Below are positions 21,524-23,239 of a DNA stretch of 64,000 bases, one piece after another. The DNA lies in the IMG/VR virus record IMGVR_UViG_3300045988_003641, positions 1 to 64,000 of that record. One strand, given 5' to 3'. The number at the start of each line of letters is the position of its first letter. Within the stretch, counting starts at the first letter, position 1. This stretch comes from a virus. Taxonomy: Duplodnaviria > Heunggongvirae > Uroviricota > Caudoviricetes. A program made the translations under genes and the position numbers. The notes beneath the pieces are model-generated. The model had not been told where the DNA came from, searched no databases, and was given only the letters and a program-made list of their open reading frames with translations.

Positions 21524-21600
21524 GGAGATTGACGGTAATTGGTAAACCTACCATCCTTAGAAGTTGGTGTTTGAGGGTTCGAATCCCTTGTCTCCTACCA
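21524..21600 (+). tRNA. tRNA with Leu-type anticodon UAG but short variable region
   Basis: Acceptor GGGAGAT/GTCTCCT, loop CTTAGAA, discriminator A, CCA encoded. Confidence 0.45.
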
Positions 21601-21607
21601 AATTAAT

Positions 21608-21683
21608 GCAGGTGTAGCAAAATGGTTATGCGGCTGACTCTTAATCAGTAAGACGATGGGTTCAATTCCCTCCACCTGTACCA
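21608..21683 (+). tRNA. tRNA-Lys (anticodon CUU)
   Basis: Acceptor GCAGGTG/CACCTGT, stem GCTGA/TCAGT, loop CTCTTAA. Confidence 0.55.
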
Positions 21684-21689
21684 GACATT

Positions 21690-21765
21690 GGGGATGTAGT
21701 TTACATGGTTAAAACATAAGTTTTGCAAACTTAAGTACAGGGTTCAATTCCCTGCCTCTCCACCA
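21690..21765 (+). tRNA. tRNA-Ala (anticodon UGC)
   Basis: Anticodon stem TAAGT/ACTTA, loop TTTGCAA; G3-U70 wobble present. Confidence 0.65.
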
Positions 21766-21771
21766 ATTAGT

Positions 21772-21846
21772 GCATCCATAGTTTAAACGGGAAAATTACA
21801 GTCTTCCAAACTGAGGTTGAGGGTTCGATTCCCTCTGGATGCTCCA
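21772..21846 (+). tRNA. tRNA-Gly (anticodon UCC)
   Basis: Acceptor GCATCCA/TGGATGC, loop CTTCCAA, T-loop TTCGATT. Confidence 0.6.
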
Positions 21847-21853
21847 AATTAAT

Positions 21854-21930
21854 GCTGCTTTCGTATAATTGGCTATTACACATCCCTTGTAAGGATGGAA
21901 ATGCGGGTTCGAGTCCTGTGAGCAGCACCA
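21854..21930 (+). tRNA. tRNA-Thr (anticodon UGU)
   Basis: Anticodon stem CATCC/GGATG, loop CTTGTAA. Confidence 0.6.
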
Positions 21931-21933
21931 ATT

Positions 21934-22020
21934 CAGAGGTCAAGTGAAAGGCCGCTGGTGTCAACTGAAGACCGTAACAAATTCCACGGAGTTGAGTTAG
22001 CGGCACAACTTCAGACCTCT
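21934..22020 (+). ncRNA. structured non-tRNA element, family copy D
   Basis: CAGAGGTC...GACCTCTG terminal stem; internal GAAGACCGTAACAAA and GCCGCT/AGCGGC hairpin. Confidence 0.3.
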
Positions 22021-22025
22021 TTCAT

Positions 22026-22100
22026 ACTCGCTTAGTTTATATGGTAAAACATCACCCTTACAAGATGAAGAAAAAGGTTCAAGTCCTTTAGTGAGTACCA
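22026..22100 (+). tRNA. tRNA-Val (anticodon UAC)
   Basis: Acceptor ACTCGCT/AGTGAGT, loop CTTACAA, T-loop TTCAAGT. Confidence 0.55.
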
Positions 22101-22101
22101 T

Positions 22102-22179
22102 GTTCCAGTATCCCAATTGGCAGAGGATGCAAGCTCAAACCTTGTATTAGTGACGGTTCGAATCCGTCTTGGAACACCA
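22102..22179 (+). tRNA. tRNA with Leu-type anticodon CAA but short variable region
   Basis: Acceptor GTTCCAG/TTGGAAC, stem GCAAG/CTTGT, loop CTCAAAC, discriminator A. Confidence 0.45.
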
Positions 22180-22184
22180 ATTTT

Positions 22185-22260
22185 GCAGGATTAGTTCAAA
22201 TGGATAGAGCAACAGTCTACGAAGCTGTTAATAGGGGTTCGAATCCCTTATCCTGCGCCA
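22185..22260 (+). tRNA. tRNA-Arg (anticodon ACG)
   Basis: Acceptor GCAGGAT/ATCCTGC, stem ACAGT/GCTGT, loop CTACGAA. Confidence 0.6.
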
Positions 22261-22277
22261 GATAAAAAGGTGATACT

Positions 22278-22520
22278 ATGCAAACATTAACAGTAGTTGA
22301 ACATGAAAACTGTGAGAATATTGAGTTTGTCAGGGTCATTGGTGTTGAACACCACATTTTCTTAAAAGTAGGGTACTTATGTGACCCCGCTAGAGTAGAA
22401 AGATTTATACGTGATTGTTTTGGTGGTAGACAGCTAAAGAGTGTTATTTTTGAGACAGTTTTACCAGAAGGTTTAGAAACGAATAATAACATTTATCTCC
22501 TTACAAGGATTAGACGATGA
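22278..22520 (+). CDS. hypothetical protein within tRNA array
   Basis: ORF 80 aa. Confidence 0.4.
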   Translation: MQTLTVVEHENCENIEFVRVIGVEHHIFLKVGYLCDPARVERFIRDCFGGRQLKSVIFETVLPEGLETNNNIYLLTRIRR

Positions 22521-23074
22521 GATATTTAAAATATGCTTCATGGATTTTCCTAGCTTTGCTAGAACCATTAGCAGCAACCTTAGCAGTTATCTTAGCACCT
22601 TTCGTAGTTCCATTTTACAGTGAGAAGAAAGGCCACTTACCTTTCGGATTTAGATGGATGGAGACATATGACAACCCAATTGATGGTGACGAAGGTCATA
22701 TCGAACGATGGGCTAAGATTAGAAAGATTGGTAAGCTGGGTGTCTACATGCAGAGAGTCGGATGGCTCTGGAGAAACAAAGCTTATAACTTCTCTTACCA
22801 TGTATTAGGAAGAGATGTAAAAGATGTTACTAAGTGGAAAGGTAATATCAACGTAAGTTCTGACCCTGAAGATAATCAGACAGGTTATCTCCTAATGTGG
22901 AACAGTAATGCTTGGGGATTATTCGCTTTTATCCCATCAATTAAAGTCTTTGGTAAACAGTTTTACTGGAGAATTTATATTGGATGGAAACTAAAAAGTG
23001 TTGTCCCAGAAGAAAGAGCATTCTCAAGGGAAAGAGTTATGTTGGCATTCTTTATTCATCCACTGAGAAAGTAA
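22517..23074 (+). CDS. hypothetical protein, N-terminal hydrophobic region
   Basis: ORF 185 aa; N-terminus WIFLALLEPLAATLAVILAPFVVPF. Confidence 0.5.
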   Translation: MRYLKYASWIFLALLEPLAATLAVILAPFVVPFYSEKKGHLPFGFRWMETYDNPIDGDEGHIERWAKIRKIGKLGVYMQRVGWLWRNKAYNFSYHVLGRDVKDVTKWKGNINVSSDPEDNQTGYLLMWNSNAWGLFAFIPSIKVFGKQFYWRIYIGWKLKSVVPEERAFSRERVMLAFFIHPLRK

Positions 23075-23082
23075 AGATTTAA

Positions 23083-23158
23083 AGGGGATTAGTTTACAAG
23101 GTTAAAACCTCGGTCTTTGAAATCGAAGAAGTTGGTTCAATTCCAACATCCCCCGCCA
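23083..23158 (+). tRNA. tRNA-Gln (anticodon UUG)
   Basis: Stem TCGGT/ATCGA, loop CTTTGAA, T-loop TTCAATT. Confidence 0.55.
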
Positions 23159-23160
23159 AT

Positions 23161-23239
23161 GCTCCATTACTCCAATTGGCAGAGAGGCCAGACTTAAAAT
23201 CTGTGTTATGTATCGGTTCGAATCCGATATGGAGTACCA
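23161..23239 (+). tRNA. tRNA with Leu-type anticodon UAA but short variable region
   Basis: Acceptor GCTCCAT/ATGGAGT, loop CTTAAAA, discriminator A. Confidence 0.45.

Follow-up and report, generated by a model that had tools for sequence, protein, structure and literature searches.

The window analyzed here, i.e., the whole 64 kb stretch of DNA, represents a Felixounavirus (Felix O1/wV8-like) genome in which leucine is served by three tRNA genes that lack a long variable arm. These genes probably specify functional phage leucine isoacceptors of type I, derived from type II tRNALeu and expected to be substrates of the host leucyl-tRNA synthetase (LeuRS). A long variable arm is presented in textbooks and specialist papers alike as a hallmark of bacterial tRNALeu, for which mitochondria and one Streptomyces isoacceptor are the listed exceptions. 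Arm-less tRNALeu are nonetheless commonplace among virulent phages, including those of E. coli, Salmonella and many other hosts; they are not special to the phage under study, and they have been little noticed. No earlier description of arm-less phage tRNALeu was found in the literature; the early papers on aminoacylation of T5 tRNAs reportedly came from the Weiss laboratory in the 1970s.

The tRNA array and its leucine genes

The three genes are located in a tRNA array (positions 18871 to 24437, plus strand) that comprises 26 tRNAs identified by ARAGORN, among which small ORFs and an HNH endonuclease gene are scattered. All 20 amino acids are covered, and leucine is contributed by these three genes only, which thus complete the set, as had been proposed in the original prediction. 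The array DNA is 95.6% identical to that of phages wV8 and O157 typing phage 8. As is typical of Ounavirinae and Demerecviridae arrays, the three leucine genes are carried on one strand, encode their CCA ends and are maintained in order and sequence among relatives. A scan of the window for promoters returned matches that did not exceed the shuffle expectation. Clearly aberrant tRNA-like genes are also present in the array.

The genes encode tRNA-Leu(UAG) at positions 21523 to 21600, tRNA-Leu(CAA) at 22102 to 22179 and tRNA-Leu(UAA) at 23161 to 23239, all on the plus strand, and both ARAGORN and Rfam assigned these same anticodons (21558-21560, 22136-22138 and 23195-23197, respectively). Their Rfam scores (40.0, 44.0 and 47.5 bits, respectively) lie above the gathering score of the tRNA model, which is 29, and below those of most other tRNAs in the array. 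The latter two positions are those originally proposed, while the Leu(UAG) gene starts one nucleotide upstream of the proposed 21524. Its register, with G1.U72, A73 and CCA, is set by G1-C72 in the T5/BF23 homologue; a start at 21524 with U73, the register of the Rfam alignment, was rejected, as it leaves a non-standard ACCA tail and conflicts with the homologues.

The Leu(UAG), Leu(CAA) and Leu(UAA) tRNAs measure 78, 78 and 79 nt with the encoded CCA, and 75-76 nt without it (ARAGORN). A structural parse, supplemented for Leu(CAA) by alignment to leuX, delimited variable regions of 5 nt (UGUUU, 21568-21572), 6 nt (AUUAGU, 22146-22151) and 7 nt (GUUAUGU, 23205-23211), respectively, in line with the sizes first reported for them. 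The remainder of the cloverleaf is complete: in all three tRNAs the acceptor stem is paired at 7/7 and the T-stem at 5/5 positions, while 4-5 of the 5 anticodon-stem positions pair, with one mismatch each in Leu(UAG), where it is U.U, and Leu(UAA). The D-arm of Leu(CAA) consists of a 3-bp stem and the 11-nt loop CAAUUGGCAGA, which is identical to the D-loop of Leu(UAA). The anticodon loops, CUUAGAA (UAG), CUCAAAC (CAA) and CUUAAAA (UAA), have 7 nt and U33, and A73 precedes the encoded CCA in all three genes, both features having been recognized at the outset. The combination of a leucine anticodon, a variable region of 4-7 nt and an otherwise complete cloverleaf is that of type I tRNALeu. A type II tRNA carries an arm of more than 10 nt, and E. 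coli tRNALeu have 13-15 nt at this site. Judged from their sequences, the three genes therefore fall outside the type II class and qualify as tRNALeu in every other respect.

The tRNAs for serine and tyrosine in the same array serve as internal comparators. Here ARAGORN identified long variable arms throughout, as had been claimed for them, namely in tRNA-Tyr(GUA) (88 nt, 19363 to 19450), tRNA-Ser(UGA) (90 nt, 21180 to 21269) and tRNA-Ser(GCU) (93 nt, 24265 to 24357), all on the plus strand.

Search for a long-arm leucine tRNA

A separate long-arm tRNA-Leu, which would have undermined the original assignment, was found in the 64 kb window neither by ARAGORN nor by Rfam. In the record of the close relative wV8, positions 1-25,900 and 31,700-81,000 of 88,487 bp hold no annotated tRNA outside the array. 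A canonical long-arm gene that makes the short ones redundant would have to be the match at 20446-20524, detected by Rfam only; phage 121Q has a homologue of it that bears the annotation tRNA-Leu(taa). It is most improbable that this element has such a role, since ARAGORN rejects both of its copies and since the sole hairpin in it with a 5-bp stem, a 7-nt loop and U33, one backed by covariation, presents UCU (Arg), with neither UAA triplet lying within a foldable anticodon arm. Its loop, CUUCUAA, is that of the canonical phage tRNA-Arg(UCU), which its acceptor and T arms also match, and it was thus set aside as a non-canonical element derived from Arg(UCU).

Leucine identity and relation to host tRNALeu

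The three genes align over their full length with the E. coli type II tRNALeu genes leuW (UAG), leuZ (UAA), leuX (CAA) and leuV (CAG), the only gap being one of 8-10 nt at the extra arm. In an alignment of 14 short phage Leu tRNAs with these four E. coli tRNALeu (A1), the sequences again correspond over their whole length, interrupted by just one gap where the extra arm would be, and A14/A15, G18G19, U33, A35, U48, G53-U54-U55-C56, A58 and A73 are invariant. The anticodons UAG, UAA and CAA are shared with the host, as are A15-U48, A73 and the D-arm with its 3-bp stem and NAAUUGGYAGA loop, while leuZ also possesses G1.U72. The host tRNAs differ in their 13-15 nt extra arms, in U32 and, among CUN readers, in G37; at the corresponding sites of the phage tRNAs, 5-7 nt, C32 and A37 are found. 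The alignment columns of the predicted tertiary elements (U8-A14, A15-U48, the G18G19 and A20a of the Leu-type D-arm, U54-A58, U55 and C56) show no variation in A1 and A2, two alignments with the E. coli genes, and at the level of sequence the three genes thus retain the identity set of E. coli LeuRS. The full-length homology to E. coli tRNALeu, together with the Leu-type D-arm and A73, strengthens the leucine assignment.

Loss of a class-defining feature accompanies reassignment in some mitochondrial tRNAs, e.g., yeast mitochondrial tRNAThr(UAG) (PMC7609411), and the short tRNAs might by analogy be charged with another amino acid and recode UUR/CUN codons during infection. This is extremely unlikely and was rejected on identity elements. 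Position 3:70 is occupied by G-C, U-A and U-A, and not by the G3:U70 of tRNAAla; the long arm of tRNASer and tRNATyr is lacking, A73 is found in place of the G73 of tRNASer, and the G-1 of tRNAHis is missing. The anticodon is an identity element for most other synthetases (PMC9976931), and here all three are those of leucine. In addition, the D-arm is specifically Leu-type, and the same codons would be contested by host tRNALeu.

Conservation and distribution

The short form is retained in hundreds of phage records, and because of this conservation it cannot be ascribed to chance. Of 264 phage records matching Leu(UAA), 216 hold a copy with at least 99% identity, against 90-96% for the surrounding DNA. 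Leu(UAA) also shares 83% identity with tRNA-Leu(taa) of Rhodococcus phage Dorin. Leu(UAG) is 81-85% identical to tRNA-Leu(UAG) of T5, BF23 and rV5-like phages. In phage VSe11, a member of the same genus, the only change relative to the Leu(UAG) allele of the window is a fully compensated swap in the anticodon stem, from CCAUC/GUUGG to UCUCG/CGAGA. Short leucine tRNAs occur in T5 and BF23 (T5-like), in Pectobacterium, Erwinia and Cronobacter (rV5-like) phages, and in Aeromonas and Rhodococcus phages, and in all of these the Ser and Tyr tRNAs are long.

For a family-wide view, 152 unique short Leu tRNAs were collected from IMG/VR. A73 and U48 are present in 152/152. Pairing in the stems amounts to 91-100%, and almost all stem positions are occupied by 3-6 different pair types, from which selection across the family is clear. 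On the question of one or several origins of arm loss, the nearest neighbor of 127 viral short genes was short for 95 and long for 27, although the small size of tRNAs precludes a firm tree.

Frequencies were determined by pattern scans of 120-locus samples, viral and bacterial. It had been proposed that class-I-like Leu tRNAs would be unusual for a bacterial system, and this is true of cellular genomes, in which short forms accounted for 5 of 121 Leu-type matches (4%), three of the five being from Actinomycetota in the contigs sampled. It does not hold for phages, as T5 and BF23 illustrate: 40 of 133 viral matches (about 30%) were short, an approximately tenfold enrichment over the cellular sample (Fisher p = 2e-8). 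The ratio of short to long viral Leu tRNAs was 42:78 in multi-tRNA arrays vs 7:52 at sparse loci, while short Ser tRNAs were absent from an unbiased viral sample (0/59).

Comparison with known type I tRNALeu

The closest counterpart is tRNAL1 (UAG) of T5 and BF23, which is 77 nt long and resembles Leu(UAG) of the window in its 5-nt variable region, A73, Leu-type D-arm and U.U anticodon-stem mismatch. These phages belong to a different family, the Demerecviridae, with siphovirus morphology, and T5-like phages have two Leu isoacceptors (UAG and UAA) as opposed to three in the window. The tRNA-Leu of phage T4, likewise part of a tRNA cluster with a homing endonuclease gene, is 87 nt long and retains its long arm, and arm loss is therefore not universal in coliphages.

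Among cytoplasmic bacterial tRNALeu, the only published type I case found in the literature is tRNALeu(CAA) of Streptomyces coelicolor, which has a similarly short variable loop and is leucylated by a bacterial LeuRS (PMC6614811). It is chromosomal and actinobacterial, while the phage genes belong to phages of enterobacterial hosts, and its A73 is reportedly no identity element, whereas the phage genes retain all of the E. coli identity elements in their sequences. Human and other metazoan mitochondrial tRNALeu(UUR) is also of type I, with an identity based on A73 and A14 (PMC9976931); its structure is degenerate and floppy, and it is served by a dedicated mitochondrial LeuRS, unlike the phage tRNAs with their canonical elbow of G18G19 and T-loop.

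Charging and decoding

The most probable explanation is that ordinary bacterial type II tRNALeu were the ancestors and that the extra arm was lost. All elements known to be read by E. coli-type LeuRS are kept in sequence, namely A73, U8-A14, the A15-U48 Levitt pair, G18G19 and A20a within a D-arm of 3-bp stem and 11-nt loop, and the T-loop (U54-A58/U55/C56), and host LeuRS would therefore be expected to charge the three tRNAs with leucine. The annotation of wV8, examined over 85% of its length, lists no synthetase gene. Arm-less E. coli tRNALeu constructs remain LeuRS substrates if A73 and the tertiary pairs between D- and T-loops are intact, as summarized in PMC9976931 from Larkin et al. 2002 and Asahara et al. 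1998. Those variants were engineered in the laboratory, and in some of them the anticodon arm is missing as well.

There is counter-evidence, as E. coli LeuRS (EcLeuRS) failed to charge S. coelicolor type I tRNALeu(CAA), and this enzyme is described in the same paper as charging type II tRNAs only, its leucine-specific domain preferring a large variable loop (PMC6614811). An arginine of the C-terminal domain (Arg811 in EcLeuRS) was proposed to touch arm nucleotide 47h, and arm recognition was likewise proposed to matter for the LeuRS of Mycobacterium tuberculosis (PMC3561953).

Together, the UAA, CAA and UAG anticodons could decode all six leucine codons. The codons that they would favor, i.e., UUA, UUG, CUA and CUU, are dominant in phage genes and minor in E. 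coli, of whose leucine codons CUG makes up about half. In the window, leucine codons are used at frequencies of UUA.30, CUU.26, UUG.14, CUG.13, CUA.11 and CUC.06. Furthermore, BF23 tRNAL1 is 83.8% identical to Leu(UAG) of the window, and according to the BF23 GenBank record, in which the inserted amino acid is unstated, changing its anticodon to CUA yields an effective amber suppressor. It follows that in E. coli tRNAL1 is both expressed and charged, and that it takes part in translation.

The failure of EcLeuRS on another type I tRNALeu, the mismatches in two anticodon stems and the clearly aberrant tRNA-like genes in the same array could all be accommodated if the genes were relics or decoys, charged poorly or not at all, that act as processing signals, host-factor sponges or integration-type sequences without decoding leucine. 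Such a role is very unlikely given that A73, U48, U33 and A35 are invariant and the four stems co-vary among the 152 unique sequences and among several phage families, and that Leu(UAA) is better conserved than its flanking DNA. The suppressor function of the BF23 homologue and the fit of the anticodons to the codon bias of the phage likewise argue for functional isoacceptors.

Loss of the variable arm

Within the preferred explanation, the arm may be dispensable for bacterial LeuRS and indispensable for SerRS and TyrRS, and therefore only Leu tRNAs would be able to shed it. A different account of why the arm was lost, though not of what the genes are, is that loss was adaptive, in that short tRNALeu serve as toxin-resistant replacements and evade enzymes of host defense, or else a host-shutoff activity of the phage, by which the class II long arm is read, with Ser and Tyr tRNAs staying long since their synthetases need it. 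Its proposed form is counter-defense: class II-reading host toxins, e.g., DUF1814/AbiEii-MenT-type nucleotidyltransferases, or a phage-directed shutoff activity would fail to see a type I tRNALeu. If so, leucine decoding would continue while host tRNALeu is disabled, and, as a corollary, enterobacterial LeuRS would efficiently charge type I tRNALeu, against the published type II-only view.

The enrichment of short forms in viral samples, which is higher in multi-tRNA arrays than at sparse loci, is consistent with adaptive loss. So are the C32/A37 anticodon loops of the phage tRNAs (U32/G37 in the host), which fit the published idea of phage tRNAs as escaping anticodon nucleases (PMC10264068). 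Among the genes of phage wV8, moreover, is one for a polynucleotide kinase, an enzyme of the tRNA-repair type. Against this, about two thirds of sampled phage-array Leu tRNAs are still long, that of T4 included, and the short form also occurs on a few bacterial chromosomes, mostly of Actinomycetota. To our knowledge, no toxin targets E. coli tRNALeu via its arm, and simple deletion bias with relaxed constraint accounts equally well for the asymmetry between Leu and Ser/Tyr. Adaptive loss in general is thus considered rather unlikely, and the counter-defense form of it is similarly doubtful, although they offer the hypothesis that tRNA architecture is tied to phage-host conflict.

Whatever the cause, phage leucine tRNAs may be regarded as a natural experiment, in which Leu sheds the arm that the surveyed phage tRNASer and tRNATyr keep, on the class II features that each synthetase needs. 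The tRNALeu of T5 and Felix O1 would be ready-made substrates with which to re-test the specificity of EcLeuRS. Annotation pipelines sometimes tag such genes as 'tRNA-OTHER' or pseudo, labels that arise because the Leu genes are arm-less.

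Three short-armed tRNALeu genes in the tRNA array

A megablast search with the array region, i.e., the tRNA cluster of the window, matched 354 phage records, among which Escherichia phage wV8 and the O157 typing phages 8 and 11 display 95.6% identity across the full 5.7 kb; these three phages are members of the genus Felixounavirus of the Ounavirinae (Felix O1-like myoviruses), to which the window also belongs. ARAGORN identified 26 tRNA genes in the window, on the + strand at 18871-24437, which span all 20 amino acids, while Rfam returned 25 tRNA matches, one of them absent from the ARAGORN set. 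Leucine is represented through three genes only, here named by their anticodons, and it is their assignment to Leu that completes the 20-amino-acid set, as originally proposed.

These genes, all on the + strand, are tRNA-Leu(UAG) (21523-21600; 78 nt), tRNA-Leu(CAA) (22102-22179; 78 nt) and tRNA-Leu(UAA) (23161-23239; 79 nt), each length including an encoded CCA, with Rfam scores of 40.0, 44.0 and 47.5 bits, respectively, against a gathering score of 29 bits. The UAG gene had been placed one base late, at 21524, its homologues setting the register G1.U72, A73 and CCA. A segment-by-segment parse of the three genes revealed seven of seven acceptor pairs, five of five T-stem pairs, four to five of five anticodon-stem pairs, 7-nt anticodon loops (CUUAGAA, CUCAAAC and CUUAAAA for UAG, CAA and UAA, respectively), an A73 discriminator and variable regions of just 5, 6 and 7 nt. 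By contrast, the tRNA-Tyr (88 nt) and both tRNA-Ser (90 and 93 nt) of the same array retain the long arm according to ARAGORN, and the original observation of short Leu tRNAs alongside long-armed Ser and Tyr tRNAs thus holds. Neither ARAGORN nor Rfam detected a separate long-arm Leu tRNA in the 64-kb window, and no tRNA is annotated outside the array in positions 1-25,900 and 31,700-81,000 of the 88,487 bp wV8 genome.

Several neighboring features are of note. An HNH endonuclease gene within the array (20762-21166, + strand) recalls SegB of the T4 tRNA cluster, and its presence may be the reason why relatives have gained and lost tRNA genes in a mosaic fashion. Directly upstream of the array, an ORF (17290-18705, + strand) encodes a DUF2828, DUF7788 and vWA protein, labelled 'RNA-binding protein' by PHROG 850 and as wV8 gp047, with a possible role in tRNA or RNA handling. 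Phage wV8 also carries a polynucleotide kinase gene (4139-4804), an enzyme type that T4 uses for tRNA repair, hinting that tRNA damage matters to this lineage of phages. Two ARAGORN calls fall below the Rfam gathering score, i.e., a tRNA-Trp just 71 nt long whose D-arm is degenerate (20677-20747, + strand) and one tRNA-Met(CAU) in which position 1:72 is unpaired (19123-19199, + strand). The tRNA-Glu(UUC) at 18955-19032 shares its 5' acceptor strand, GUUCCAG, with tRNA-Leu(CAA).

Leucine identity

The phage genes align end to end with the type II (long-arm) tRNALeu genes leuW (UAG), leuZ (UAA), leuX (CAA) and leuV (CAG) of E. coli K-12, interrupted by a single clean gap of 8-10 nt located exactly at the extra arm of the host tRNAs. 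Phage and host share a diagnostic D-arm of the Leu type, in which a 3-bp stem closes an 11-nt loop: E. coli tRNALeu has NAAUUGGYAGA, the phage CAA and UAA genes have CAAUUGGCAGA, and UAG carries a slight variant (UAAUUGGUAAA in an 18-nt D-arm). Also common to both are U48, positioned immediately before the T-stem as the partner of A15, the T-loop GUUCRANUC and A73. These D-arm, U48-A15, T-loop and A73 elements constitute the E. coli leucine identity set in a review of tRNA identity, which adds that leucine identity does not crucially depend on either the anticodon or the long arm, arm-less variants being still active (PMC9976931). From this alignment and these elements, the three phage genes are, as judged from sequence, tRNALeu in both descent and identity elements, being type I (short variable region) solely in that they lack the arm.

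Distribution and conservation of the short form

Tequintaviruses (T5, BF23 and others), rV5-like Vequintavirinae and Pectobacterium phages all carry homologues of the UAG gene, at 81-85% identity. A tRNA-Leu of Rhodococcus phage Dorin matches the UAA gene at 83% identity. In six phage arrays (T5-like HildyBeyeler, Pectobacterium Arno18, Erwinia Tian, Cronobacter EspYZU15, Aeromonas TS3 and Rhodococcus Dorin) ARAGORN assigned 76-78 nt to all Leu tRNAs, 85-95 nt to Ser and 83-89 nt to Tyr. The short form is not universal, however, as the T4 tRNA-Leu measures 87 nt and Xanthomonas phage X1 possesses short and long Leu tRNAs together.

A pattern requiring three loops (Leu-type D, Leu anticodon and T) and accepting either arm length was scanned against IMG/VR and GTDB species genomes (120 stretches each). 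Short Leu tRNAs made up 40 of the 133 viral and 5 of the 121 bacterial matches listed (odds ratio 10; Fisher p = 2e-8), proportions which are indicative and not a census since they derive from the matches listed only and depend on the pattern. Viral loci with at least five tRNAs contributed 42 short versus 78 long Leu tRNAs among the matches listed, and none of the 59 Ser tRNAs listed from the same viral sample was short. The five bacterial cases listed belong to Gordonia, Herbiconiux, an Actinomycetales MAG, a Planctomycetota MAG and an Ahniellaceae MAG; the Planctomycetota MAG has three short Leu tRNAs beside a tRNA-Tyr.

Several comparisons speak for selection on the short genes. Of the 264 records that match Leu(UAA), 216 do so at 99% identity or more, although relatives show 90-96% identity over the surrounding DNA. 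The anticodon stem of the window's Leu(UAG) (21551-21567) contains a U.U mismatch, also found in the T5/BF23, EspYZU15 and Arno18 homologues; in other Felixounaviruses such as VSe11 an otherwise identical allele has a wholly different and fully paired stem, the change from CCAUC/GUUGG to UCUCG/CGAGA being fully compensated. Between families, almost every stem position (acceptor, anticodon and T) differs, yet pairing is kept. A short-only IMG/VR scan yielded, among the matches listed, 152 unique parsable short Leu tRNAs, of which all have A73 and U48 and 146 have U8, with each stem position 91-100% paired and, except at the last T-stem pair, represented by three to six pair types.

Deletion of the arm may be tolerated in Leu alone because SerRS and bacterial TyrRS would need it and LeuRS would not. 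It is rather unlikely that arm loss is itself adaptive, although long-armed class II tRNAs are reportedly preferred by AbiEii, a toxin of abortive infection, and by its homologue MenT3, and evasion of tRNA-targeting defences is known for phage tRNAs (PMC10264068). The Leu anticodon loops also differ systematically between phage and host: all three window genes (21556-21562, 22134-22140 and 23193-23199) have C32 and A37, as do 124 and 138, respectively, of the 152 viral short Leu tRNAs, while U32 is present in four of four E. coli Leu genes compared and G37 in the CUN readers. Owing to A37, the UAG tRNA is predicted to be a non-substrate of TrmD (m1G37). In the CAA gene, C38 disrupts the A36-A37-A38 motif.

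Charging and function

Approximately half of the Leu codons of E. coli are CUG. In 76 ORFs of the window the Leu codon fractions are UUA.30, CUU.26, UUG.14, CUG.13, CUA.11 and CUC.06, and the UAA (UUA/UUG), CAA (UUG) and UAG (CUN) tRNAs represent a minimal six-codon set tilted to host-scarce codons. The annotation of the 85% of wV8 examined includes no aminoacyl-tRNA synthetase, and charging would therefore fall to the LeuRS of the host.

Among the functional evidence found, the strongest concerns BF23 tRNAL1 (77 nt), which shares 83.8% identity with the UAG gene of the window and for which the GenBank depositor noted that 'replacement of the anticodon with CUA sequence converts this tRNA into effective amber suppressor'. 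This shows that tRNAL1 is expressed, processed, aminoacylated and ribosome-used in E. coli, the depositor note being silent on the inserted residue; charging independent of the anticodon is a prediction of Leu identity. The same tRNA-region record states per tRNA which genes are convertible into amber suppressors. Interspersed with the tRNA genes, it annotates stable RNAs as well as RNA1, RNA2 and RNA3, described as 'tRNA-like RNAs with unknown functions'.

Leucylation of the phage short Leu tRNAs is very probable and well supported, yet falls short of proof because of two contrary reports. The type I S. coelicolor tRNALeu(CAA) was not charged by E. coli LeuRS, which is described there as one that 'only charges type II' (PMC6614811), and a contact between an arginine of the LeuRS C-terminal domain and arm nucleotide 47h has been proposed (PMC3561953). 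The former paper gives human mitochondrial LeuRS as the only earlier-reported enzyme charging type I tRNALeu, without mention of phages (PMC6614811).

Type I tRNALeu was already known from mitochondria and from S. coelicolor (CAA), the T5/BF23 tRNALeu of the same family as the window genes were sequenced and manipulated decades ago, and hundreds of GenBank records label short Leu genes as tRNA-Leu, with some entered as tRNA-OTHER or pseudo. No statement that the arm is commonly absent from phage tRNALeu was found in the literature searched, and the specialist paper of greatest relevance appears unaware of this. The short-arm phage Leu tRNAs are a correct and somewhat under-appreciated observation that involves no new mechanism.

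A non-canonical Arg(UCU)-like gene

Greater novelty potential than that of the short Leu tRNAs resides in a conserved, non-canonical tRNA-like gene at 20446-20527 (+ strand; Rfam 31.7 bits), which was missed by ARAGORN. Its canonical-looking hairpin has the loop CUUCUAA, corresponding to anticodon UCU (Arg AGA/AGG); AGA accounts for 40% of the window's Arg codons, and ARAGORN found no other UCU tRNA in the window. Homology with canonical phage tRNA-Arg(UCU) covers the acceptor and T arms, while a normal D-arm is absent, with ~22 nt ahead of the T-stem. Across six aligned sequences, 99.2% of the pairs of a four-helix fold are formed, a value reached by none of 500 shuffles, and eight pairs are changed on both sides. 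In this fold the anticodon hairpin lies within a predicted 3-bp 'D-stem', CUC:GAG (11-13:40-42), in which one change is compensated and after which comes a D-loop-like AANUGGA. The element is accordingly modelled as a permuted D-arm arrangement, a fold backed by covariation. It displays 83-100% identity to sequences in 263 phage records of at least six genera, including Felixounavirus, Asteriusvirus (121Q), Justusliebigvirus (phi92), Mydovirus, Sugarlandvirus and a Vibrio phage; these homologues are mostly unannotated, and the 121Q copy is mislabelled as tRNA-Leu(taa).
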